Source of the DNA: a virus
Virus record (IMG/VR): IMGVR_UViG_3300037311_000137
Location: 1-36,054 of that record
DNA length: 36,054 nucleotides
Reading direction: 5' to 3' (one strand)
Shown: positions 1,900-34,917 of the stretch, one piece after another
Numbering within the stretch: the first letter of the stretch is position 1
Layout: the number at the start of each line of letters is the position of its first letter
The notes under the pieces: generated by a model
The model's database searches: none
What the model was told of the DNA's origin: nothing
Seen by the model: only the letters and a program-made list of their open reading frames with translations
Position numbers and translations under genes: made by a program

Positions 1900-2100
1900 C
1901 TACGCAATGTGTCTTTTTTGACTCATGCCCCTTTTGACAACCTCCCTCGCTAAAGCGAGCGGATTCCCTCTACAGGCGATGCTTGTCCGCATCGGAGAAT
2001 GTTCATAGCAGCGTTTACGTCACGATCGTGTGTCGATCCGCACTCACTGCACGTCCACTCTCTTATTCCAAGCCCTGCGATACCTTTCGGCCTCGACTCA
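1900..2100 (-). ncRNA. Putative omega-RNA (reRNA) scaffold overlapping the tnpB 3' end (limits approximate)
   Basis: A hairpin at 1943..1963 (UCC(G)CUCGC-UUUA-GCGAG-GGA on the minus-strand RNA) encloses the tnpB stop codon and is followed by GGUUGUCAAAAG. This placement is typical of TnpB guide-RNA scaffolds. Confidence 0.35.
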
Positions 2101-3008
2101 GGCATAGCGCCACAAGTCGAACAGGTTTGGGTTGAATAGCTCTCGTTCACCTCGACATATCTCACGCCATTCATAACTGACTTGTACGCAAGCATTTGTC
2201 GAAACGAGGACCATCCAGAATCTAAAACTAATTTAGCCATTTTGGTTTTTACGAGTGCTGAGGAATTAACATCCCCAACGTAAATGGCATCAAATTGTTT
2301 AACAAGCTCTGTGCTTAGCTTGTGGTGAAAATCTTTTCGTGTGTTTTTAATCTTATCGTGAAGCTTAAGTACAAGGCGCTTTTTGTTTGCTCTTTGCGCT
2401 TTTGCAAGCTTTTCGGCGTACTGTTTTGTGGCCCTCGGTCCCTCAAGTTTTAAGCCGTTTGAAAGCGTCGCAAAGTCTTTAAGCCCAAGATCAATGCCAA
2501 CTTGAGTGCTCTTTGTTTGTTGAGCTTCAGCCTCAAATGTCACAACAAGGTTTAAGTACCATCGACCACGTGAGTCTTGAGAAAAGCTTGAGCCGTCTCG
2601 TATTTTTGCACCAACGGGTAATTCCCTGCTTTTAAAAACGCGAAAGGTTTTTCCAGACCAGACAAAATCATTGCCGTTTGGTTTTATGTGGCGTCCTCTT
2701 AATGGAATCCATCCGGTATTTTTGTGAGACCTCCACCTCAACCACGGACGCTTGTGTTGACTTCGAGACTGTGCGTATTGCAAGCAAACTGCGTTTATTG
2801 TTTGAGAATGTAAATCTAACAACTTTGAGCTACCAGCTGTTAGATTGGTTAAATCAAATCCACTAAGCCACCTTTGACCTCGCTTCACCGCTGTCTTTTG
2901 AGTTTCATTGCAGTAGTTAAATACAAAATTAACCTTGCGCGCCTGTGCGTTTAAAAACCCCGTGTGCGATTTTACGCGAAACTTAAAGGTTTTGGTTTGA
3001 CCGGCCAT
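1950..3008 (-). CDS. tnpB: TnpB (IS200/IS605 OrfB family RNA-guided endonuclease), 352 aa
   Basis: Motifs read directly: GIDLG (RuvC-I Asp), VNESYSTQTCSTCG...CSECG (RuvC-II Glu plus a CxxC..CxxC zinc ribbon) and HDRDVNAAMNIL (RuvC-III Asp). Confidence 0.9.
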   Translation of the reverse strand: MAGQTKTFKFRVKSHTGFLNAQARKVNFVFNYCNETQKTAVKRGQRWLSGFDLTNLTAGSSKLLDLHSQTINAVCLQYAQSRSQHKRPWLRWRSHKNTGWIPLRGRHIKPNGNDFVWSGKTFRVFKSRELPVGAKIRDGSSFSQDSRGRWYLNLVVTFEAEAQQTKSTQVGIDLGLKDFATLSNGLKLEGPRATKQYAEKLAKAQRANKKRLVLKLHDKIKNTRKDFHHKLSTELVKQFDAIYVGDVNSSALVKTKMAKLVLDSGWSSFRQMLAYKSVMNGVRYVEVNESYSTQTCSTCGAMPESRPKGIAGLGIREWTCSECGSTHDRDVNAAMNILRCGQASPVEGIRSL

Positions 3009-4319: not shown

Positions 4320-5157
4320 ATTTCACTCCGTTTAAGGCTTCAAAAAACAACTCTCGATTAACCGCGTTTCCCATACGCCGACATTTTGCAAACGTCACTG
4401 ACCTGAGCGAAGGGCTCCAAAGCTCTTTGTTTGTGATCAATTTTTCTGGAACACGATTAAACAAAAGCACGTTATGTGCCTCCTGAACGGCGGTTGATGA
4501 GCCTTTAATATCAAACTCACTCAGCACCAATCCGTTGTCGGTTTTTTTGGGGTGCATAATCATAATTACGTGCGCTGGCAATTCTTTTGCCAAAATAATC
4601 CAGTCGTGAGTAACTCTGTCCATTTCAATAATCATGTCGGAGCTTCGGCGAACCTCTAAAAAGAAGTTTAAGTTGTCGAGCACAACGAGAGAGGTGTTGT
4701 CATGTTTTACGGAGTGAACCACCTGCTCCATCATTTCCTCGTTTTTTACGCGATTCTCATAAGCCGTTAAATAAATCGGCATTTCGCTTAATTTTGTTTT
4801 TACGACAAACTCAGTAAATTTATCTTTTGGCGGAATTAATCCCGAATTAAAATTTGAGCCGCTCTCGGCGGACATGAGGCGGGCGACAAAATCGCGGCGG
4901 CCAGTTTCCACAGACGCCACAAAACAACCAACGCCTTGTGAAGCAGCAGCGAGTACAAGATTTGCAACGAAGGCGGTTTTTCCAGTTCCAGTTCCACCAC
5001 ACAAAATCGTGTACTCAAACTTCCTAAGTCCTCCAACCGTCCTCGTAAATGTTGGCCACGAGGGGATTTGTATGGACGGCTCAGGATTTAAAATGTGGTT
5101 TAAGCTTTCACTCCAAACTTCGGAAATTTTGCTGTATTTTTTTTCAAACACATTCAC
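4294..5157 (-). CDS. DnaB-like replicative helicase, RecA-fold C-terminal domain only (287 aa)
   Basis: Walker A CGGTGTGKT, an SVE motif, Walker B LVVLDNLNF and an H4-like IKGSSTAVQEAHNVLLFNR. The start overlaps the upstream stop. Confidence 0.85.
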   Translation of the reverse strand: MNVFEKKYSKISEVWSESLNHILNPEPSIQIPSWPTFTRTVGGLRKFEYTILCGGTGTGKTAFVANLVLAAASQGVGCFVASVETGRRDFVARLMSAESGSNFNSGLIPPKDKFTEFVVKTKLSEMPIYLTAYENRVKNEEMMEQVVHSVKHDNTSLVVLDNLNFFLEVRRSSDMIIEMDRVTHDWIILAKELPAHVIMIMHPKKTDNGLVLSEFDIKGSSTAVQEAHNVLLFNRVPEKLITNKELWSPSLRSVTFAKCRRMGNAVNRELFFEALNGVKYVEATTPY

Positions 5158-6134
5158 AACAACCCTCGCTCCCGCATGCGCTTTTCGATTTCAAAACGCT
5201 CGTCGGAGTTGTTGATGTATTTTAGCTCGTTTATTTTTTCAAAGTTCGTTGGATTAAAAACCCATTCGAACGTTGCCTTGAATTGCGAATTTTCCGCTTG
5301 ACCTTTCAGAAATTCCGACCACCCAATTTTAAACGAAAAAAATATCCTCCAAAAATGCCGCTGCTTGTGCTGCTCAAGCGCCTTAACCACGTTTCGTACG
5401 ATGTTTGCGTTGAGTAACACCCGATCATCAACGGGGTCAAGCCAATCTTTCGTTTCGGCGTACATTTCGGCGTATTTGTTCCACAGGCGCACGATGTCCT
5501 GCGGTGCGTGAAACTCTCCCTCGTAAAACGCCATACCCAACTCTTTTGTTCTACTCCACTCCTCATCGCTGACCGCCTGAAACCCCCCACTCGTTGACTG
5601 ACTTTTTAAATCAACCAACAACCTGTTTTTAAATTCCTGAGTATTATTATTTAAATTTGGTTTTTTAATTGTATATTGTTTTTGTATTGTATTGTTTTGT
5701 ATTGTATTGAATTGCATTGTATTGGCTTCAACCATTTGCTTCGATTCTGGTTGAACCATTTGCTTCGATTGGGTTTGCTTTTTGTTTCGCCTAGTTACAC
5801 CGCTTTTTTTCCCACCGTTTGATCCTTTGTTTCTCAAATCTGAGATTTTTTCGGAGTGTTTTTTGTTTCCGCTAATTTCAAAAATGTTTTCGTTTTGTGT
5901 TTTTAAAATAAACTCACACTCAATAAGTGCAGCAATTATCTTGTCAGGCTCGAGTCTCTGATACGGATCAAACCAAAGTGAAATTTCTTGAGCGTTTGAC
6001 TCAATGACCTCATTATCTTGAGAGTCTCTCCACAAAAAACAGAGCATTCCAATTGCTGATTCGTGGTGTATTCCTAAGATGGCCGCAAGGCGTTTTGCTT
6101 TTGCCATTCCCCTTGTTTCAACGTTTACCCTCAT
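5154..6134 (-). CDS. Putative replication initiator/organizer protein (326 aa)
   Basis: First gene of the leftward operon and translationally coupled to the helicase. SD AAGGGG lies 7 nt upstream. It contains iteron-like DNA repeats. The function is inferred from position only. Confidence 0.7.
   Translation of the reverse strand: MRVNVETRGMAKAKRLAAILGIHHESAIGMLCFLWRDSQDNEVIESNAQEISLWFDPYQRLEPDKIIAALIECEFILKTQNENIFEISGNKKHSEKISDLRNKGSNGGKKSGVTRRNKKQTQSKQMVQPESKQMVEANTMQFNTIQNNTIQKQYTIKKPNLNNNTQEFKNRLLVDLKSQSTSGGFQAVSDEEWSRTKELGMAFYEGEFHAPQDIVRLWNKYAEMYAETKDWLDPVDDRVLLNANIVRNVVKALEQHKQRHFWRIFFSFKIGWSEFLKGQAENSQFKATFEWVFNPTNFEKINELKYINNSDERFEIEKRMRERGLL
5684..5728. repeat. Three 15-bp tandem units containing the 11-mer GTATTGTATTG (iteron-like)
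   Basis: 11-mers at 5684, 5699 and 5714 (the third has one mismatch), next to an AT-rich tract at 5630-5683. Confidence 0.8.
5730..5770. repeat. Two copies of AACCATTTGCTTCGATT spaced 24 bp apart
   Basis: Exact 17-mers at 5730-5746 and 5754-5770. Confidence 0.85.
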
Positions 6135-6148
6135 TAGATGTCCCCTTC

Positions 6149-6183
6149 GGTTTCAATTGTTGTGCGAAATTTCAATTGAAACC
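6149..6183. promoter_or_regulatory. Perfect 11-bp inverted repeat GGTTTCAATTG-N13-CAATTGAAACC (operator-like)
   Basis: The arms at 6149-6159 and 6173-6183 are exact reverse complements. The site lies 15 bp upstream of the initiator-gene start, in the divergent region. Confidence 0.45.
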
Positions 6184-6238
6184 TTGGGTCAAAGTGGGTA
6201 CTTAGATTCCAAGGTCTCGTTTCGCAAAAAAAGACTTA

Positions 6239-6285
6239 CCCCACGGCTTGATGGTTTTCAAATCATATAAGTTGTGGGGTTTTTT
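6239..6285 (+). terminator. Intrinsic-terminator-like hairpin H1 plus a T6 run
   Basis: CCCCACGGCTTG pairs with TAAGTTGTGGGG (12 bp, including 3 G-U pairs that only work in the plus-strand RNA). TTTTTT follows, and A7-GACTTA precedes. Confidence 0.55.
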
Positions 6286-6286
6286 G

Positions 6287-6300
6287 TTTAAGCGCTTAAA
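6287..6300. promoter_or_regulatory. 14-bp perfect palindrome TTTAAGCGCTTAAA
   Basis: Self-complementary over all 14 nt, located between the two hairpin modules. Confidence 0.3.
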
Positions 6301-6377
6301 AAAGCTTGAAAAAATTAATGAAAATCAGTAGTCTCACGCTCGCTGTTCAAGCCTTTTATACGTAAAAAAAGACTTAT

Positions 6378-6423
6378 CCCACAGGCCAGAGGCTTTCAAC
6401 ATCCAAAGCCTGTGGGGGTTTTT
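6378..6423 (+). terminator. Intrinsic-terminator-like hairpin H2 plus a T5 run
   Basis: CCCACAGGC pairs with GCCTGTGGG (9 bp perfect). GGTTTTT follows, and the same A7-GACTTA leader as in H1 precedes. It ends 17 nt before the ATG at 6440. Confidence 0.55.
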
Positions 6424-6439
6424 GTGGTAACGCTTACCC

Positions 6440-7057
6440 ATGTACCTAAACTGTAACTTCCCCTTGTTGAAGGCCAATTTCAGGCTTGAGTTCGCATACA
6501 ACCTAGAGCGAAAAGCCGGGCTTGTACCTTGCATGATCTTCGGTGTCGCGTCCATTCCGGGGCGTGCTTTAGGGTTCCACTGCATGTTAGAGAACGGCGC
6601 TCAGTTCGCTCGTATGCCCTTACACGCGTTTAGGGTGGGGAAACATGAGGGAGACGATACAACACCCCTCCTAAGCGATCTGGAGGCTTGGGACGCGCTC
6701 TCGTACGACGTGAGCTGCACTCAGTACGCATATCTTAAAAACATGGCCTGCGAGTATTGGGTGAAAGACAAGGGTTGGGTCAAAGCTCAATATTTTGCGA
6801 CGATAGACTTTGCAGAAAACCCCGAAAGACTCACTACGTTTTCAGAAATGCCTGATGAGCATAAGTGTGCGCACGTTCTCATTAGGGAGGACGGGAATAT
6901 TGCAGCTCAACCCAATAACCGCATTCGATGGATCGACAAAGCGTTTATCACAGCCCCCTTCGTTGAAAGACCCGATTTTAAGGTCAACACACACGTCTTT
7001 GAAAGCGAATCAGCTGTGAGTGAAAACTCGGACGCTTACTTCTATCGTGAGAGTTAA
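6440..7057 (+). CDS. Hypothetical early protein (205 aa)
   Basis: Track ORF and first gene of the rightward block. No SD seen, so the start is uncertain. Confidence 0.65.
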   Translation: MYLNCNFPLLKANFRLEFAYNLERKAGLVPCMIFGVASIPGRALGFHCMLENGAQFARMPLHAFRVGKHEGDDTTPLLSDLEAWDALSYDVSCTQYAYLKNMACEYWVKDKGWVKAQYFATIDFAENPERLTTFSEMPDEHKCAHVLIREDGNIAAQPNNRIRWIDKAFITAPFVERPDFKVNTHVFESESAVSENSDAYFYRES

Positions 7058-7113
7058 AATCACTTAACACTTGAGTTGTTGAAAACTTTCATGCCCTGGT
7101 GTTTAAAGCGCTC

Positions 7114-7464
7114 ATGAACACAGTAATACTTTCAGGACGCGTTGGTGCAGACTCAGAGCTTAAAACCACAAGAAATGGAAAGCCTTACACACAATTCTCG
7201 GTGGCCGTAAATCGGAAATCACCCACTGGAGACGTGAGCGCTAGCTGGTTTGATGTCACATGGTTTTCAGATCATGCGCGCATTCTATCTAAAGGCGACT
7301 ACGTAGTGGTGTATGGCTCCCTCACTCAAGAGACATGGACTGACAAAAGCGGTCAAAAGCGGTACGCGGTTAAAGTCATTGCAAATCAAGTGGTCGTAGC
7401 TGGTAAAACACTTGCAAGTGATGCGCCTCCGCAATCGTCTTTTGAGGACGATGTCTCATGGTAG
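7114..7464 (+). CDS. ssb: Single-stranded DNA-binding protein (116 aa)
   Basis: MNTVILSGRVGADSELKTTRNGKPYTQFSVAVNR... is an OB-fold SSB pattern with an acidic tail SSFEDDVSW. The GTG at 7099 is an alternative start. Confidence 0.85.
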   Translation: MNTVILSGRVGADSELKTTRNGKPYTQFSVAVNRKSPTGDVSASWFDVTWFSDHARILSKGDYVVVYGSLTQETWTDKSGQKRYAVKVIANQVVVAGKTLASDAPPQSSFEDDVSW

Positions 7465-7625
7465 GCGTTGAGCTTTACGCCAGATATATACTTATGGCCT
7501 CGTTCGCCATTGGTTGCGGTGTGTTCTTGTCTCTTCTCTTGGTTGAGATTTGTGTGACCTATTACAAGTCTAAGAAGCAAAAGCGAATATTGTCAGATGC
7601 TTGGGAGAGGTGGGCGAAAAAATGA
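7458..7625 (+). CDS. Small single-TM protein (55 aa)
   Basis: Hand-translated as MVGVELYARYILMASFAIGCGVFLSLLLVEICVTYYKSKKQKRILSDAWERWAKK. It overlaps the ssb stop and forms an ATGA junction with the next gene. Confidence 0.45.
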   Translation: MVGVELYARYILMASFAIGCGVFLSLLLVEICVTYYKSKKQKRILSDAWERWAKK

Positions 7626-8365
7626 AAGCATACCGAAACGGAATTACTAAGACTCAGTTCGTAGCTGAGCTTAAGAAGCACCAAAAGGCAGATCGGTTTC
7701 TTCAAGGTACCTATTGGAATAATGAGGCAAATCGCGGATGTGCTGTGGGGTGCGGCATTAAGTCGATCAATGAATTAAAGCAAAAAAGATTTGGAGCCAA
7801 TAACCACGAAGCGCTTTCTGAATCACTCGGATGGCCTCTTTGGCTCGTGAGACTAGAAGACCGAATATTTGAAAATGTGTCGGTCAAACGATCAAAAACC
7901 TGGCCCGTTGAGGTTGCAGGCGCTATAAAGTCAGGCGCTAATTTAGATCAGGCACTCAACCCTATTCTGATAGAGATTCTAAAGGTTGCAGCGACGGCGG
8001 TTGAAGGAAAAGAAGACCAATATTCTAAGAAATCCTTGAGTGCAATAAAACAAGTTATCAAAGGTTTGTCTGGTAAAGGATCGTTAGACAGAGCTTCTGC
8101 TGCTGCTGCTGCTGCTGCTCGTGCTGCTGCTTATGCTGCTGCTTATGCTGATGTTCGTGCTGCTGCTGATGCTGCTCGTGCTGCTGCTTATGCTGCTGCT
8201 TATGCTGATGTTCGTGCTGCTGCTGATGCTGCTCGTGCTGCTGCTTATGCTGCTGCTTATGCTGCTGCTTGTGCTTCTTTTTCTTTTAACACCCCTGATG
8301 CTTACTCCCACGCAATGGAAACAATCGCCGACAAGGTGCTTGAGGTGTTGAGGAGCACGAAATGA
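7622..8365 (+). CDS. Protein with a globular N-domain (CAVGCG motif) and Ala-rich tandem repeats (247 aa)
   Basis: ATG at 7622 forms an ATGA overlap with the upstream ORF. The C-terminal half is RAAAYAAAYADVRAAADAA x2.6. Confidence 0.8.
   Translation: MKAYRNGITKTQFVAELKKHQKADRFLQGTYWNNEANRGCAVGCGIKSINELKQKRFGANNHEALSESLGWPLWLVRLEDRIFENVSVKRSKTWPVEVAGAIKSGANLDQALNPILIEILKVAATAVEGKEDQYSKKSLSAIKQVIKGLSGKGSLDRASAAAAAAARAAAYAAAYADVRAAADAARAAAYAAAYADVRAAADAARAAAYAAAYAAACASFSFNTPDAYSHAMETIADKVLEVLRSTK
8120..8272. repeat. 57-bp tandem repeat x2.6 (two units 100% identical)
   Basis: Units 8120-8176 and 8177-8233 are identical. A third, partial unit follows. Every Ala codon in 8094-8275 is GCT. Confidence 0.9.
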
Positions 8366-13457: not shown

Positions 13458-13490
13458 ATTAAGGTCAAAGCTTTGATCCTATAAAAAAAG

Positions 13491-13574
13491 TAGCGATGAG
13501 GGGAGTCGAACCCCCAACCTTCTCGTGCCCGTCCATGGTCTAGTCGAGACGCTCTACCCTTGAGCTACACCGCT
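13491..13574 (-). tRNA. tRNA-like gene, 84 nt, canonical acceptor/D/T arms but a 19-nt anticodon loop; identity undetermined
   Basis: Folded by hand: AGCGGUG/CAUCGCU acceptor stem, GCUC-AAGGGUA-GAGC D arm, UCUCG..CGAGA anticodon stem, AGGUU variable loop and GGGGG-UUCGACU-CCCCU T arm. No CCA is encoded, and a T7 run follows. Confidence 0.6.
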
Positions 13575-20422: not shown

Positions 20423-20617
20423 TTAAAAACACTCTTCAATATTGGCAGGAATCTCTACAGACCAGGTTGTTGTGATGTTTTCACATCCTGGTCCCCATAT
20501 GCCCGCACAAGGCCAAATGAAGCCAAAGGTCAAAAGACCCAAACCCTCGACCGTATTGTTTCCGACAAACCCCTCATCAAGAAGCGCTTGCCCGTTTACC
20601 GTCACATCGAAATTCAT
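20423..20617 (-). CDS. Hypothetical small protein (64 aa)
   Basis: Track ORF overlapping the glycosyltransferase 3' end by 41 nt. Confidence 0.45.
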   Translation of the reverse strand: MNFDVTVNGQALLDEGFVGNNTVEGLGLLTFGFIWPCAGIWGPGCENITTTWSVEIPANIEECF

Positions 20618-22802
20618 GCAGCTCCTTTGCTTTCCCTAGCCATTCCTCGGCTACGCGTTCCCAAGAGTGATGCTCAAGATCCATCTTAACACGTGCATAG
20701 GCCTTTTCTCGAATGCGAGCCTCAACAATGTCAGCCCAAGGACCCACATCTTTTTCCTCCTCAGCATCCAAGGTCAAAAGATCCGCACACCCAGCGTCAA
20801 CAAAGGGCTTGAGCGTGTCTTGTAAACCCGCTGTAGCCTTTGCGATTGGATAGACTTTGCTTGCAAGCATCTCTAACGCCGTGATGCAGAATGTCTCAAG
20901 GAAGCGCGTTGGATAGAGCCAGTATTGCTTTGTTGCTAAAGCTTCCCTCAGTACCGATTGCTTCACCCCACCGTGATACTTCACCCAAGGTCTAGCCCGC
21001 ATCATGTCCATCAAGCGCTGAGCCTGTGCTTGCCTTCCATACGCTCCAAAGTGCTCAAGACCATAAAACACATCAAGTGTTGCATTTATGCCACGCTTCC
21101 TCACCTCATCAAGCACAAGCATCGTAAACTCAAGTCCACGGTCAGGGCTTGAAGACCATACAAAGCTATGCTCCTCTTTTTTATCCAAGTCAGGCTCTGG
21201 AAAGAATTGAGACAAGATCCCATTTCTTGTAACCCACACCTTGTCATCTGGAATTGCCACCTGAGACTGAATGAACTTCTTTTGCCATCCAGATAAGACC
21301 GCAATCACATCATAAGTCTCAGTCTGCTCCATGCCCTGAATCAAGATGTCATGACTCCAAGCAATGGTAGGCGCGTCCGTGATCTTGTTGTTGTGCCTCC
21401 ACGCAATATGAAGGTATGGCTTGTTTGTGGCCATGTAATCCGCTGTGACTTGAGCCGGAGCGTACACAACCCCGTCTTCCGCAACCTTTTGAGCTTTAAC
21501 ATTCCCAAACACAATGACTTGTCTGTGGGGTTCCTTTTTCTTAATCCAATGCGCAAGCCAAATAGCAGCGGTTTCGCTTCCACCTGTGAGCTTCTGGAAG
21601 TAAGAATCATAATCCCAATCATGCCAGCCCATGCCAGGCACACACGTGATCACGATGTCATCACACTCTTTTGCGGTCTTGTAAGCCGTCTGCAAATACT
21701 CAATGCGTGACAATTCTTGTTCTATTTGAGGAGACTGCATTGCAAAGTCTTGTTTACCTTGCTCAAGATAGGCTCTCGCTCTCGCGAAATCTCCAAGTGT
21801 CATGTAGATCTGAATAAGCTTTTCAGTCGGATAAGGACCGTACACTAAAGGATTTGAGAATATCGCGCTCATGTGCTGTTGCTGTGGCATGACACACATT
21901 CGAGCTGCTTCATAAAACGGTATCGCATCATGGAAGCGATTCTGAGACGCGTAGGCATCTCCAATCATCACATGAAACTCAGCCCTGGTCGGTGCAAGCT
22001 GCAATCCCATATGAGCGACGTCAATCGCCCGTGCGGGTTGATTACTCATTGCATAGGCCTGAGCCATGAATTGAAGCGCCATCGTTCTATCGTGGCCCTC
22101 AAGGCGTCTGTCAGCAGAGGCAAGCTTAAGCTCTTGAATGGCGTCTACATGCTTGCCATTCTCAAAAAGCTCTTTTCCGTAGTAGTAGCGCATGCGTGCG
22201 TCAAGCTTTTCGCCAGACTTAACCTTGTCCTCAATGATGGAAAGGTTTCGACTTCTATCTCCTGCTAAATCAGCTTCGGTGCGCTTGTGTACGATTTGCC
22301 AAGCAGGACTAAATTGAACAATCGGCGCTTTTGTGAGCCCCGGCTTTGCTACAATTCCTTCGTGGATAAAATACTTCCACTGAAAACGTCCATCGTTCTT
22401 AATGATGCGCTCTCTCGTAAACACACACGTTGGTTGACCTTGTGCGTTTGTGGCATACCAGTAATTTGCAAGCCACATGTCCGCTTCACTTAGCATCTCA
22501 TCCCTAAACGCAATAAAGCGCTCACGGCTTGATAGCACGTCATCGCCATCCATCCACATGATGTAATCAGTCTTTGGGTGAGAGAACGCAAAGTTACGTG
22601 CTTTTGCAAAGTCATCACACCACTCGAAGTGATGGACGATACAGCCTAAGGGTTCAGCCACCTGAACCGTGTCATCCTCTGAACCTGTGTCTGTAATGTG
22701 AATCTCGTCAAAACATCCTTCAATTGACTTCAATAACTCAGGCAAATGATGTGCTTCATTACGCACAATCATTGCCAAAGCGATGGACGGGCGCTTTTGC
22801 AT
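20577..22802 (-). CDS. Tri-domain glycosyltransferase: N-terminal GT2 (GT-A), central TPR repeats, C-terminal GT4-like (GT-B) (741 aa)
   Basis: GT2 domain: IALAMIVRNEAHHL...ITDTGSEDDT...FAKARNFAF...WMDGDDVL. TPR-like helices: YYYGKELFENGKHVDAIQELKLA and YASQNRFHDAIPFYEAA. GT4 domain: LTGGSETAAIWLA and the ExxxxxxxE motif ETFCITALEML. ATG at 22802 has an AAGGAG upstream. Confidence 0.88.
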   Translation of the reverse strand: MQKRPSIALAMIVRNEAHHLPELLKSIEGCFDEIHITDTGSEDDTVQVAEPLGCIVHHFEWCDDFAKARNFAFSHPKTDYIMWMDGDDVLSSRERFIAFRDEMLSEADMWLANYWYATNAQGQPTCVFTRERIIKNDGRFQWKYFIHEGIVAKPGLTKAPIVQFSPAWQIVHKRTEADLAGDRSRNLSIIEDKVKSGEKLDARMRYYYGKELFENGKHVDAIQELKLASADRRLEGHDRTMALQFMAQAYAMSNQPARAIDVAHMGLQLAPTRAEFHVMIGDAYASQNRFHDAIPFYEAARMCVMPQQQHMSAIFSNPLVYGPYPTEKLIQIYMTLGDFARARAYLEQGKQDFAMQSPQIEQELSRIEYLQTAYKTAKECDDIVITCVPGMGWHDWDYDSYFQKLTGGSETAAIWLAHWIKKKEPHRQVIVFGNVKAQKVAEDGVVYAPAQVTADYMATNKPYLHIAWRHNNKITDAPTIAWSHDILIQGMEQTETYDVIAVLSGWQKKFIQSQVAIPDDKVWVTRNGILSQFFPEPDLDKKEEHSFVWSSSPDRGLEFTMLVLDEVRKRGINATLDVFYGLEHFGAYGRQAQAQRLMDMMRARPWVKYHGGVKQSVLREALATKQYWLYPTRFLETFCITALEMLASKVYPIAKATAGLQDTLKPFVDAGCADLLTLDAEEEKDVGPWADIVEARIREKAYARVKMDLEHHSWERVAEEWLGKAKELHEFRCDGKRASAS

Positions 22803-22809
22803 GTGATGC

Positions 22810-23286
22810 TTACTCCTTGGCGACACTTGTTTGAGTGTTTGTCAGAGTCTTTTCACGTATCAGCTCAGTGCCGCCTCTCGCATAGATACTCCAAAGACCT
22901 GAGTTTTTATTGAAGCTAGCATCACCTTCTTGGAATTCAAGGTTACGTTTTGCAAACCCCATAAGAGTTGTGGGGTCTACAGCCGTGTCACCAAAGGAAT
23001 CAGTCACAACACCGACGCGTTGATCGGTTACTTGCAGTGGGTCAAGAACACCTACGATGTAACGGTCAGAGTCTGCAAGCCCCGCTCCACCATCCATTTG
23101 CCACAAGATGCTTTGTGTGGGCCCGTACTCAAATCGGTAAAGACCTGAGCCTGCTGGCGTCTCTGTAATTCCAGGTGCTGTAATCGCACTCACACCATTG
23201 ATTGCAAAGATCGTGAGCGTAGGCGTAAGCCCCGTGTTGTCCGCTGGGTTTCCACTTCCAAAGCGTGCGTAATAAAATTTACTCAT
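22810..23286 (-). CDS. Structural hypothetical protein (158 aa)
   Basis: Track ORF overlapping the upstream gene by 8 nt. Confidence 0.75.
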   Translation of the reverse strand: MSKFYYARFGSGNPADNTGLTPTLTIFAINGVSAITAPGITETPAGSGLYRFEYGPTQSILWQMDGGAGLADSDRYIVGVLDPLQVTDQRVGVVTDSFGDTAVDPTTLMGFAKRNLEFQEGDASFNKNSGLWSIYARGGTELIREKTLTNTQTSVAKE

Positions 23287-31463: not shown

Positions 31464-31800
31464 GTAGAACCTCTTCCATTGATTTACCAAGGTTTGCTTG
31501 AATTTTTTCCTTGTCGCCTTTTCTGCACACGTAAACCGCTGGGTTTCCGTAAGTAAAGAACCCACCTGGCTTAAGTCCACGCCTGTTGAAGTAGTTTACC
31601 ACGTCCTCATCGACTTCAAGCCACTGCTCAGGGTCTTCACCTGAGTTGATAGCCACTTGAGCCGCAAAAGCTCTATCTTGAAACTCACGGATCTTTTCTG
31701 CGATTCCAGTGTAATGTGCATCTCGCGTCATTTCGGGTTGTTTTACTTCCATAATTTCTTTAGGCGGTCTGCCTCTCCTTTTTGTTTCAGTCATATTCAT
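31429..31800 (-). CDS. AT-hook-containing protein (123 aa, KRRGRPPK)
   Basis: Track ORF overlapping the terL-C 3' end by 14 nt. Confidence 0.65.
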   Translation of the reverse strand: MNMTETKRRGRPPKEIMEVKQPEMTRDAHYTGIAEKIREFQDRAFAAQVAINSGEDPEQWLEVDEDVVNYFNRRGLKPGGFFTYGNPAVYVCRKGDKEKIQANLGKSMEEVLHGHSKLDSSAY

Positions 31801-32593
31801 CTAAGTTTTCAGAGTTTCGTTTTTTAATCAACTGTTCGATTGCCCACTTCTCGTAGTTTGCGTTGTGTGGTGAGTGTGGTCTTGGTGTTTGCGGCACCGC
31901 TCCAATTTCAGGATATTGTACGATGTCCTCGATTGAGGCGAGTGCATCCATTAAGTCATCGTGTGCAGCGCGTGGGAAATCATCGTATTCGGATTTTAAG
32001 TGCTCAAAGTCTTCCATCATGTAAATGCGTCCAAACTCAAAGCGTGGGACTAAGCCTTCGATGCGTGCTTCTTTGGTTTGCTTGCCTCGCTTGATGCCTA
32101 CAAGAGGTGGAAGTGTGAGTCTGCGCTTTGATTCCTCTCTCACAAAGTATTCGATTGATTCTTGGAACACTTGAGACTCGTACCCAATCACCATGGGCTT
32201 AATCTTTTGATGCACCTCAAAGATCTTTGACACAATCTCGGTTGGGGTGAGTCTATAGCGTTGAGCAACTCTTACGTACCAGTTGGTGTTAGCGTCCACA
32301 GAGACCACCACAAGGGCCGTGTAGTCGTGTTGCTCTTCTTGACCTATGGCTGGGTCCAAGAACGCAAACGTGTTTGTGGGCATTCCTGGAGGCGGTCCGG
32401 GGGATATTCTCCACCATTCGGGCTTAAACTTTCGAAGCTCATCTGGAATGACTCGGTTTAGGTACTGGTTTGTAAACTTGTAAGACCCAAGCTCGCGCTT
32501 TAACTCATCAAGCTTTTCTTTTGAAAGCTTCTGAGGGAATAGAAGCGACCCATCAGGGCGTATGGCTTGCTCGTAAACAACGTCCCACTTCAT
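31787..32593 (-). CDS. terL: Terminase large subunit, C-terminal part (lid region plus RNaseH-like nuclease domain, 268 aa)
   Basis: FTNQYLNRVIP, FAFLDPA (nuclease Asp) and AAHDDLMDALA. The ATG directly abuts the TAA of the inserted gene. Confidence 0.88.
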   Translation of the reverse strand: MKWDVVYEQAIRPDGSLLFPQKLSKEKLDELKRELGSYKFTNQYLNRVIPDELRKFKPEWWRISPGPPPGMPTNTFAFLDPAIGQEEQHDYTALVVVSVDANTNWYVRVAQRYRLTPTEIVSKIFEVHQKIKPMVIGYESQVFQESIEYFVREESKRRLTLPPLVGIKRGKQTKEARIEGLVPRFEFGRIYMMEDFEHLKSEYDDFPRAAHDDLMDALASIEDIVQYPEIGAVPQTPRPHSPHNANYEKWAIEQLIKKRNSENLDEYD

Positions 32594-32917
32594 TTAAGAA
32601 GACTTAAGCGACATGACTTGTGCGACTACGGTTGCGCCAATTCCCGCAATGTAGAACGGCGCAGGGCCTAAGAAGTCAAGGCGTTCAGCGGTTTTGACGA
32701 TGTAGAACTGGTTTGCAGTGAAAGCAGCCGCAAGTTGTGCAGCAGATAGGGTCTGACCCGCTGGAACCCCGATAATGATTAAGGTGCCACCTGATACGCG
32801 AGCCACAACTCTGTCAGCAACAAAGGCGCTTGAGCCTATCAGTTGTGCGTTTGCAGCCCCTGCCACAAGCGTGTATTGTTGTGCAGTGATCGAACCCGTG
32901 CGTAGTCCTTCAATCAT
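32594..32917 (-). CDS. Ala/Gly-rich 107-aa protein nested between the two terL halves
   Basis: Open frame fills the whole insert, with an ATGA overlap to terL-N and a TAA|ATG abutment to terL-C. Confidence 0.65.
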   Translation of the reverse strand: MIEGLRTGSITAQQYTLVAGAANAQLIGSSAFVADRVVARVSGGTLIIIGVPAGQTLSAAQLAAAFTANQFYIVKTAERLDFLGPAPFYIAGIGATVVAQVMSLKSS

Positions 32918-33636
32918 TTGAGTCCCCCTTCAGTAAGCCCTAAAGAAATCTTATCACACTCATCGATTTCATTTGCAATGATGTGCCCAATTACGTCATC
33001 AATAGCGTATCTAGTTCCACACACAACGTAAATATCCGACCCATCTAGTATGGCCTTATTGTACTGGTAATGGTCAACTACTTTGGTTCTGCCCTCTTTT
33101 GAGCGTGAATTGTTGTTTGAATTGAGGTCATCCGAAATGATGACGTCGTAATGTTGACCAACTTTCACGGTGTTTACTCCACCTGCCGTGATGGATGCTT
33201 CCTTCCGTGGTGCTGATCTAAGAGAGAGTGTAATCTCTCCTTCCCCCCAAGTCGAGCCTTTTAAGTTTGGAAAGAACATTTGCATGATGGGGGATTCTGC
33301 GTGTGCTTTGATCTCTCGAATGAAGTTCTTTGAGTTAGAGTAAATTTCCGAGTCAATGAGTATGGCTTCGTTTGGGTTTTTGAATAGAAGCCTCCATAGA
33401 GGGTATGCAACACAGACAAGTGAGCTTTTGAATGTTCCACGTGGAAGCACGATGAGCTTTCGTTTGGTGTTACTTTCAAGTGCTTTCGTGATTTTGAGAT
33501 GAGTGCTTGGTTGTAGGTCTTTGTAGCCTAGAGCTTGTTTGGCGAATGTGAAGAGGGATCTAGACCAACGGTCACGAATAAGCTCTTGTAGAGCGTCTGT
33601 TTGCTCTTCAATTGTGAAGTGTTCCAGTCCGGTCAC
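32914..33636 (-). CDS. terL: Terminase large subunit, N-terminal ATPase part (240 aa)
   Basis: Walker A-like LPRGTFKSS, Walker B YDVIISDD and coupling motif CGTRY. Confidence 0.88.
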   Translation of the reverse strand: MTGLEHFTIEEQTDALQELIRDRWSRSLFTFAKQALGYKDLQPSTHLKITKALESNTKRKLIVLPRGTFKSSLVCVAYPLWRLLFKNPNEAILIDSEIYSNSKNFIREIKAHAESPIMQMFFPNLKGSTWGEGEITLSLRSAPRKEASITAGGVNTVKVGQHYDVIISDDLNSNNNSRSKEGRTKVVDHYQYNKAILDGSDIYVVCGTRYAIDDVIGHIIANEIDECDKISLGLTEGGLK

Positions 33637-33641
33637 AGACC

Positions 33642-34115
33642 TTAATCTTGGTCTGAAACGTCTTTCGACTCAACCTCAATTGAGTTCATGAGTAGGCTTT
33701 TAAGCATTTGGAAGCGCTCTTCAGCGTCTGGCGCGTTTTGTGTGACGTTTGCGTCAACCTGAACGCGTGCGAGTTTCGGGTATGAAAACTCCATGAGGTA
33801 CAAGAATATTTCGATTGTGCGGAAGGGGTCTTTTTTCCACATGGAGTGCTCTTCGATCTTTTGAAGGATGTACTCAGGGACTGGAATGTTGAGAGACGTT
33901 TCAATGATTTCACGTGCGATACGCTTGGGGGTCATGACGCGTGTGGGTTTAATGGAGTTGTGGCCGCCCTTGTTTGGGTGTGTTTGTCTCACTTGTGGCT
34001 TTTCAATTGCGTATTGGCGGCCTTTGGCGCGGTTGTCTAGGAGTGAATACGAGGTTTCCATTTTAGCGTCTGTGTCTTGACGTCCTGTTCCGCCTCCGTG
34101 CTTTTTATCCGCCAT
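33642..34115 (-). CDS. Putative terminase small subunit (157 aa)
   Basis: Position immediately upstream of terL, with a basic N-terminus. No motif-level support. Confidence 0.6.
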   Translation of the reverse strand: MADKKHGGGTGRQDTDAKMETSYSLLDNRAKGRQYAIEKPQVRQTHPNKGGHNSIKPTRVMTPKRIAREIIETSLNIPVPEYILQKIEEHSMWKKDPFRTIEIFLYLMEFSYPKLARVQVDANVTQNAPDAEERFQMLKSLLMNSIEVESKDVSDQD

Positions 34116-34917
34116 TGATTTGGTCTCCTAAGCGTTTCAGCTCCGCACACATATCGAGGTAGCTACTCGGTGTGCCGATGTCATAGATTTCGGCGTGATC
34201 CTCAAGATAGGTAGGTTGCACACCCACTTGAGAGAGTGCCCATGAGAGGTCAATCTCGCCTGCTTCGTTTGTTGGGGACTGGACTAGGTACTCTCTAATG
34301 TTTTTGTGCAGAAGGTATCGACCACGGACTGCAAGCCCGCTTGCGAGACCCTTTGGCTTTTCTGTAACCTTGTAAAGCGCGTGGGTCTTGGATTCGCGGT
34401 CTAGGTCTAACTGTAAGATACCATATCGCTCAGGTTCATACACGTGCCTACAAAGCACGAAGGCACAGTCCTTTTTGTGATACACCCGGTCAGCTGGTTT
34501 CATGATGTAAGGTAATTTACGGTCGCTCTTAATAACAATTTCGTCCGGAAGTGTTATTAAGAAGTGGTCGCTATTAACATTTTTCATTCCAGTGAGTATT
34601 GCGTGCCCTAAACCTAAGGGTTCGGGTTGGACAATGGTTGTGTAGTTTGAGACGCCTGCAATCTTGAGCGCATGAAAGTAGGATGGGTTTTGAAGGGGTT
34701 GATTTAAGACAGGGTCACGTGGAGCTTGTGGCACGACTAGGGTTACGTGTGGGGTTTTTGTGGGCTCAAGGGAGCGTGCGATTTCAAGCGCTTCCATGAC
34801 GACAACTGAGAGGGCTGGAAGGTTATTGACGGGCAGGAGTGCCTTTGAGAGGCCCGGCACTTCAGACCATGGCGACCAACGTGTTGCGCGTCCTGCTAAA
34901 GGGATGATGATATCCAT
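34105..34917 (-). CDS. GalU-like sugar-1-phosphate nucleotidyltransferase (UTP-glucose-1-phosphate uridylyltransferase-like, 270 aa)
   Basis: IIPLAGRATRW...SKALLPV (the GxGTR..K signature region), LGLGHAILTG, FLITLPDEIV, RYGILQ and VTEKPKG...VRGRYLL parallel GalU motifs. Confidence 0.8.
   Translation of the reverse strand: MDIIIPLAGRATRWSPWSEVPGLSKALLPVNNLPALSVVVMEALEIARSLEPTKTPHVTLVVPQAPRDPVLNQPLQNPSYFHALKIAGVSNYTTIVQPEPLGLGHAILTGMKNVNSDHFLITLPDEIVIKSDRKLPYIMKPADRVYHKKDCAFVLCRHVYEPERYGILQLDLDRESKTHALYKVTEKPKGLASGLAVRGRYLLHKNIREYLVQSPTNEAGEIDLSWALSQVGVQPTYLEDHAEIYDIGTPSSYLDMCAELKRLGDQINGG

Follow-up and report, generated by a model that had tools for sequence, protein, structure and literature searches.

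In the virus record IMGVR_UViG_3300037311_000137, analysed here as one stretch of 36,054 nucleotides (nt; positions 1 to 36,054, hereafter the window), the large terminase subunit (TerL) is encoded by two genes, an N-terminal half and a C-terminal half, with a third gene between them that we call X. The same split characterises a large clade of uncultivated relatives and is not a private insertion. It results from a single ancestral fission of TerL followed by inheritance as two genes, and the gene boundary created by the fission is a permissive cargo slot within terL. The overall reading, in which TerL of this clade works as a non-covalent two-chain enzyme and the boundary between its genes serves as a place for cargo, is given a probability of about 0.8. 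Tailed phages are detected, classified and dated with TerL, their hallmark gene, as the standard marker, and the enzyme is also the model for viral DNA-packaging motors. The divided terL is a well-supported extension of the 'genes-in-pieces' theme to the packaging enzyme, with an unexpected cargo slot in addition.

Layout of the divided terL gene

The N-half, X and the C-half are three tightly packed open reading frames (ORFs) on the minus strand, in this order. The features of the locus are as follows (aa, amino acids).

32914..33636, minus strand: TerL N-half, 240 aa, GTG start, ATPase core
33421..33444, minus strand: Walker A motif PRGTFKSS, in the N-half
33127..33150, minus strand: Walker B motif YDVIISDD, in the N-half
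33007..33018, minus strand: coupling motif GTRY, in the N-half
32923..32930, minus strand: Shine-Dalgarno-like AAGGGGGA, 5 nt ahead of the start codon of X, within the last N-half codons (TEGGLK)
32914-32917, minus strand: ATGA overlap of N-half and X, read from the sequence
32594..32917, minus strand: gene X, 107 aa, small jelly-roll protein of the terL-gap family
32591..32596, minus strand: X/C-half junction TAA/ATG, the X stop TAA (32596-32594) abutting the ATG (32593-32591)
31787..32593, minus strand: TerL C-half, 268 aa, ATG start, putative lid and RNase H-like nuclease
32354..32356, minus strand: codon of catalytic D80, C-half nuclease

The N-half and the C-half are read in different frames, while X shares the frame of the C-half and is separated from it by the TAA alone. 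The ATPase and the nuclease, joined in one polypeptide in a conventional TerL, are thus encoded by separate ORFs that differ in frame and have another gene between them. An earlier sequence-only reading of this DNA had described the three ORFs with their coordinates and discordant TerL frames, the ATGA overlap at 32914-32917, the TAA/ATG abutment at 32593/32594 and an insert richer in GC than its surroundings. Each of these holds exactly when the sequence is read again, the GC fraction being 0.53-0.56 in the insert and 0.41-0.48 in the flanks. An identical layout is found in four independent assemblies made from different samples, three of them from Logan (separate sequencing runs) and one from a JGI metagenome. 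Because the four agree on the order N-half, X, C-half, an assembly artefact is ruled out.

Both halves are recognised as parts of a T7 gp19-like TerL with a Terminase_6C nuclease, and together they account for the whole protein. On the TerL profile phrog_38 the N-half covers positions 271-465 (E = 2.4e-28) and the C-half positions 468-707 (E = 8.6e-45); they map back-to-back, which leaves no part of TerL unaccounted for. A profile of the joined halves matches T7 gp19 (4bij) with E = 9e-18. The ATPase and nuclease motifs to which the earlier reading had pointed can all be found, and alignments of relatives show no variation at their key residues. In the N-half these are K70/S71 (Walker A), D169/D170 (Walker B) and G207/T208/R209 (coupling motif), the full set expected of an additional-strand catalytic-glutamate (ASCE) ATPase. 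In the C-half they are D80, D213 and D216, the catalytic acidic residues of an RNase H-like nuclease, and the C-half also matches the terminase RNase H-like domain PF17289 above its gathering score (E = 7e-7).

The position of the cut within the fold was located by aligning the joined halves with contiguous outgroups. The cut site is a surface loop of the ATPase domain, variable in length, with the helix after the coupling motif (GTRY...DDVIGHI..NE) on one side and a conserved W-x-V-V-Y-x-x-A segment on the other. At this position contiguous outgroups have a linker of 10-20 residues. In the split proteins the N-half ends in a variable tail of 0 to ~35 residues (17 aa beyond the last TerL-homologous residue in the window) and the C-half begins at the conserved W. 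T7 gp19 (4bij) and PhiV-1 TerL (8dgc) belong to the same family, with the same arrangement of Walker A, Walker B and coupling motif and an RNase H-like nuclease, but each is one polypeptide, whereas the present chain is interrupted after the coupling-motif helix and before the next segment.

What the C-half contributes besides the nuclease can be approached through an AlphaFold2 (AF2) model of this half taken alone (predicted local distance difference test score, pLDDT, 88). Residues 1-24 (WDVVYEQAI...) are extended and unpaired, residues 25-44 form a long helix, and the nuclease fold starts at about residue 73; given the extended segment and the helix, the first ~70 residues are not nuclease. 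The top Foldseek match of the model is the full-length, T7-like TerL of PhiV-1 (8dgc_E, E = 1e-9, 277 columns), and the matches comprise TerL nucleases as well as full-length TerLs. Residues 1-24 would provide a strand of the ATPase sheet, and helix 25-44 with the NQYLN motif would form the lid. With the ATPase fold divided between the chains in this manner, the two halves would have to complement each other non-covalently within one domain.

Evolutionary rates agree with a requirement for both chains. The relative represented by L001 and L002 is ~77% identical in nucleotides to the window and shares its N-half, X and C-half ORFs. Between the window and L001 the ratio of nonsynonymous to synonymous divergence, dN/dS (with dS in brackets), is 0.100 (1.32) for the N-half, 0.087 (1.11) for X and 0.093 (1.55) for the C-half. 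By this sequence-based measure both TerL halves are under equal purifying selection, which gives indirect support to the idea that the pieces assemble into an active enzyme. The two-chain TerL that the sequence-only reading had offered as one possibility gains from this, and from the inheritance of the split throughout the clade.

The signals around the junctions point to coordinated expression. The Shine-Dalgarno-like AAGGGGGA probably acts as the ribosome-binding site of X, and GAAGGGGGA is kept in L001 and L002. No Shine-Dalgarno sequence is found upstream of the C-half start, which abuts the X stop, and this suggests termination-reinitiation coupling. In 15 of the 27 distinct loci that hold both TerL halves (complete loci below), the gene preceding the C-half has its stop at -4 to 0 nt relative to the start of the C-half. 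Between the three genes there are no promoter-like sites and no terminators above chance, so the N-half, X and the C-half are probably carried on one late transcript.

Relatives, the cargo slot and protein X

Searches with the N-half gave 814 homologues and searches with the C-half 540. The best 120 of the 814 N-half homologues are all 211-266 aa long and the best 120 of the 540 C-half homologues all 255-284 aa. By way of the N-half 49 related viral contigs were collected, and others were added by further routes; loci reached via X were collected by exact-protein look-up, the X alignment having no conserved stretch. In 49 of 49 distinct split loci the N-half ORF stops at one and the same position of the profile, and the C-half begins at its residues 1-3. 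Single-gene TerLs appear among relatives only at a distance. At no more than 36% identity they are found in L053 (577 aa), L064 (470 aa) and L065 (452 aa), as well as in Lentibacter phage ICBM1 (514 aa) and ANMV-1 (473 aa). The comparison with contiguous relatives that the sequence-only reading had proposed thus places the insertion point in the loop before W-x-V-V-Y. In a neighbour-joining tree of the N-halves the split loci are monophyletic and nested among the contiguous outgroups.

The clade comprises hundreds of protein clusters in metagenomes, with no deposited representative among the phage genomes searched. Deposited phages match the TerL halves at ~35% identity or less, and their TerLs are single genes wherever this was checked. 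Neither a DNA-level search nor a search with the X protein gave a match among deposited phages. A scan of genome collections returned only phage contigs binned into metagenome-assembled genomes (MAGs), of inconsistent taxonomy, from which no host could be assigned. Two PHROG families, phrog_4758 (profile length 243) and phrog_5573 (250), have only half the length of TerL and match the N-half and the C-half, respectively, from end to end; the annotation of both is 'terminase large subunit'. The PHROG source genomes must accordingly include split TerLs, so far unremarked, that are broken at a similar point. One locus has an unusual N-half: in L048 (2780-4552) simple ORF calling gives a 590-aa ORF containing the N-half, the best listed N-half hidden Markov model (HMM) match covering profile positions 17-71. 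Fusion to an upstream gene, or read-through from one, may account for this long ORF, or its start may have been called too far upstream.

The gap between the halves varies widely in the 27 complete loci, from 224 to 5458 nt. In relatives it holds 1 to ~10 genes on the terL strand, and the window, with X alone, has the minimal layout, which recurs in at least four lineages. That the window is the minimal state of a clade-wide variable cassette inside terL is a point that only relatives could reveal, and the sequence-only reading had missed it. ORFs of at least 80 aa in the gaps number 131 on the terL strand and 12 on the opposite strand, and the cassette genes mostly overlap or abut their neighbours. 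The minority with a recognisable function encode GT2 glycosyltransferases, FkbM- and TRM5-type methyltransferases, an ART-like domain and a GP4-type fibre protein (Gp80). A 674-aa protein with depolymerase and BppL_N domains and a ConA-like lectin are each encoded directly after X. Among 74 non-redundant cassette genes compared with Pfam, none has an HNH, GIY-YIG, LAGLIDADG, Vsr-like, transposase or integrase domain.

One cassette deserves separate mention. In L010, from the N-half to the end of the locus (4733-8193), the gap contains an apparent small fibre module and no X gene. Its ORFs encode a beta-rich protein of 102 aa, a coiled-coil protein of 161 aa, a GP4-type fibre I protein of 136 aa (Gp80, E = 2e-27) and two related proteins of 291 aa and 386 aa, the latter weakly matching a tail-fibre PHROG.

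The course of events can be put together from these elements. An ancestral TerL underwent fission once, in the loop between the post-coupling-motif helix and W-x-V-V-Y. The boundary thus created, in a late operon with strong expression, became a permissive slot, which in relatives holds 1 to ~10 same-strand genes, nearly always including a member of the X family. The N-half, X and the C-half would be co-transcribed and translationally coupled via the ATGA overlap and the TAA/ATG abutment. In the assembled enzyme the N-half would bring Walker A, Walker B and the coupling motif, and the C-half the next strand of the sheet, the lid helices and the whole nuclease.

To the sequence-only reading the coupling signals of X looked like those of a normally translated operon gene, a view that the low dN/dS of X (0.087) and its third-position bias both favour. 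Differences between the window and L001 at first, second and third codon positions number 15/6/50, so that 50 of 71 are at third positions, and a second pair of family members (L009 and L011) shows the same bias with 28/16/69. On such sequence comparisons X is a real, translated gene under purifying selection. An exhaustive HMMER search yields a family of 57 cluster representatives, 101-122 aa in length, with no sequence match in Pfam, PHROG or the PDB. The family is tied to the terL gap: 52 of 52 local matches of its HMM lie between TerL halves on the same strand and none occurs in contiguous outgroups, and members found through X alone, over the whole range of E-values, are likewise all in the gap. 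X is present in 23 of the 27 complete loci, as tandem pairs in 3 of these. It is distributed over the entire clade and the loci that lack it are scattered, which fits an ancestral resident occasionally lost.

The four complete split loci without X are L019, L022, L050 and L052. The gap of L022 holds nothing except an unrelated ORF of 75 aa. In the X-less lineage L050/L051/L052 a Gly/Thr-rich, beta-looking ORF of 128-130 aa lies directly upstream of the C-half:

L050:1775-2161, next to the C-half: Gly/Thr-rich ORF
L052:1560-1952, next to the C-half: Gly/Thr-rich ORF

This ORF may take the place of X as an analogue, or may descend from it with strong divergence, but when profiles were compared the 130-aa ORF of L052 gained no link to the X family.

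The AF2 model of the X family (pLDDT 86, predicted TM-score 0.73) is a small jelly-roll, a beta sandwich of eight to nine strands. Its fold matches are weak and generic and include cupins, the Ena spore-appendage pilin and many uncharacterised phage proteins of 90-120 aa. The near-invariant columns of the family are exclusively Gly, Thr and Tyr (G20, G43, G54, T56, G84, Y89 and T96). An assignment of X as a cupin was rejected, the His/Glu metal ligands not being conserved and the similarity in fold being weak (template modelling score, TM, 0.5-0.6).

X could be a dedicated third component of the terminase that bridges or chaperones the chains or sets their stoichiometry, the active enzyme then consisting of N-half, X and C-half. 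The confinement of X to terL gaps, its presence in most complete loci across the whole clade, its place as the first gene after the N-half in 25 loci, its translational coupling to both halves in the window and the recurrence of the minimal layout all fit such a role. Against it, L019, L022, L050 and L052 are complete and have no X, and profile comparison gives the L052 ORF no link to it. Many loci have unrelated genes parting X from both halves, X is often duplicated in tandem, and in several loci it adjoins fibre-, depolymerase- or lectin-like genes, which are of the receptor-binding type. It also diverges faster than its neighbours, at ~35% identity compared with ~50% for the TerL halves. 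We therefore regard a third subunit as unlikely. The same low standing applies to its more elaborate form, in which X arose with the fission as an assembly or clamping factor of a three-chain terminase and was replaced by an analogue, such as the L050/L052 ORFs, in the X-less lineages. The suggestion made in the sequence-only reading, that the 107-aa protein is an accessory terminase subunit, accordingly becomes doubtful as to function, while the protein itself stands. With 23 of 27 complete loci containing it and some containing it twice, X is probably not an obligatory terminase subunit. Most likely, if tentatively, it is a virion-associated or host-interaction accessory protein.

Alternative explanations and precedents

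Several points weigh against a two-chain TerL with a cargo slot at its gene boundary. The association and activity of the N-half and C-half are predicted from sequence comparison, and the placing of C-half residues 3-11 as a strand of the ATPase sheet draws on general knowledge of the ASCE and TerL folds together with the alignment of contiguous relatives. The tree on which the split loci are monophyletic is a simple neighbour-joining tree without support values, and the clade is represented by uncultivated sequences. For X, the fold matches reach TM 0.5-0.65 at E ~1e-4, with no known virion protein among the top matches. Finally, the split would be only apparent if the insert were removed at the RNA level, as a group I or II intron, or skipped by bypass, frameshift or read-through, to give a single-chain TerL.

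Joining at the RNA level has a precedent in the spliced group I introns documented in terL, for example in Jug phages (PMC12880540), and it finds some encouragement in X and the C-half sharing one frame, with the TAA alone between them, in the window and in L001. The sequence-only reading had left room for an intron or a bypass and had proposed a search with intron covariance models. This search found no Rfam match, either at gathering thresholds in the whole window or at E up to 10 in 32300-33200, and the insert with its junctions folds like shuffled sequence (z = +0.32). The dS of X (1.11) is as high as that of the flanks, which leaves no sign of an overlapping RNA-structure constraint. The tail of the N-half beyond the TerL homology changes mostly synonymously between the window and L001 and is therefore translated, not intronic. 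The junctions vary by 3-nt and 6-nt indels between the window and close relatives, and gaps reach 5.5 kb and about ten genes. A group I or II intron is rejected on the grounds of the missing covariance-model match, the lack of excess structure, the selected ORF in the gap and the translated tail. A read-through fusion of X and the C-half is rejected because the two are out of frame in other loci, such as L062 and L027. A bypass or frameshift of the T4 gene 60 type fails as well, the gap being a selected 107-aa gene here and 224-5458 nt long in relatives, with frames that are not conserved. RNA-level joining is in our view largely refuted, and it is the least probable of the explanations considered.

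A mobile element could also have made the split, as a free-standing homing endonuclease gene or a split intein of which X would be the remnant. The operon layout of half, ORF and half does resemble Aeh1 nrdA-mobE and the fractured genes, which include one gp17-like terminase (PMC2677866). X is nevertheless a jelly-roll protein without nuclease motifs or Pfam and PHROG matches, in keeping with the remark of the sequence-only reading that no homing-endonuclease-like motif could be recognised, and none of the 74 cassette genes encodes an endonuclease, transposase or integrase of the types sought. The ends of the halves are no more favourable. With N-half tails of 0 to ~35 aa, variable in length, and C-halves that start at the conserved W, there is no room for the N-intein (88-105 aa) and C-intein (33-54 aa) described for fractured genes in PMC2677866. 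An intein or split intein is rejected for this reason, for the short and unconserved tails, for the C-halves beginning at W-x-V-V-Y and for the different frames of the halves. As an example of homing-endonuclease 'genes-in-pieces', the locus does have two co-oriented ORFs in one operon, but the intervening gene is not an endonuclease. A mobile-element origin is very improbable, somewhat less so than RNA-level joining.

A two-chain TerL with a cargo slot shares features with several known systems. In the 'genes-in-pieces' arrangement of Aeh1 nrdA (Friedrich et al. 2007, in the account of PMC2677866), the HNH gene mobE lies between the two halves of the gene. An essential phage enzyme is there, as here, encoded by two genes of one operon with a third gene between them, and the pieces are thought to reassemble non-covalently into active enzyme. 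According to that account, Aeh1 differs in having mobE as the resident and a recent split private to its lineage, in place of a jelly-roll resident, an ancient clade-wide split and a multi-gene cassette. Fractured genes likewise have a phage gene in two parts with an ORF between, combine split inteins with a homing endonuclease gene, and include the terminase mentioned above among their hosts (PMC2677866). In these systems trans-splicing by the split intein re-ligates the protein, whereas the ends of the halves described here have no intein-like segments, so that the chains must stay separate.

In Jug phages terL is also fragmented in gene calls, and its group I introns were found by covariance models and their splicing shown by RNA reads (PMC12880540). 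The locus described here differs in having no intron-model match, no excess RNA structure and, as its insert, a selected protein-coding gene. Split DNA polymerase genes are found in the OM43 phages MEP401/402 (PMC10580990) and in magroviruses, which are viruses of archaea (PMC5434244), and a small ORF of unknown function lies between the polymerase parts in MEP401/402 (PMC10580990). There too a core enzyme of replication or packaging is divided within its catalytic domain, but the enzyme is a different one, and neither a variable cassette nor a gap-resident family is reported (PMC10580990, PMC5434244). The divided terL is set apart from all these precedents by its ancient, clade-wide split, its multi-gene cargo slot and its own resident protein family. 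Full-text literature searches found no description of a clade-wide two-gene TerL, although one may still have been published.

If the two chains do form an active enzyme, the motor can do without a covalent link from its nucleotide-hydrolysing core to the force-transmitting part with the nuclease, and experiments with two-chain reconstitution and labelling become possible. The fission point of an essential gene has turned into a hypervariable slot for host-interaction genes, with a resident protein family of its own. On the practical side, each half lies below typical full-length expectations, and TerL-based tools will for this reason under-call or mis-call the clade.

Other genes of the window

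Upstream of the TerL N-half, at the position usually held by the small terminase (TerS), lies a 157-aa ORF (33642..34115, minus strand). It has no Pfam or PHROG match and is not similar to the ORF annotated GP3_package at the equivalent place in L058, so that its assignment as TerS is unsupported by all three comparisons.

Two features lie farther from the terminase. A tRNA-like gene (13490..13574, minus strand) scores 53 bits against the Rfam tRNA model, and 19 nt are inserted in its anticodon region. The ARAGORN call is 'tRNA-???', 85 nt long, the anticodon having four bases (agac). The gene may encode an unusual tRNA, for example one with an intron. Adjoining the replication genes, a TnpB-type protein of 352 aa is encoded (1950..3008, minus strand); contig L003, which is identical, has a precomputed annotation that gives this protein OrfB_IS605 and Cas12f1-like_TNB domains.

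Genes connected with sugars occur at two places in the window. One, the second gene upstream of the TerL N-half, encodes a 270-aa NTP_transferase (34105..34917, minus strand), and the other a protein of 749 aa (20577..22826, minus strand) that combines GT2, TPR and GT1 domains. In relatives, GT2 or GT10 glycosyltransferases are found within or beside the terL cassette. Together, these sugar-modification genes of the window and its relatives suggest glycosylation of virion or host surface components.

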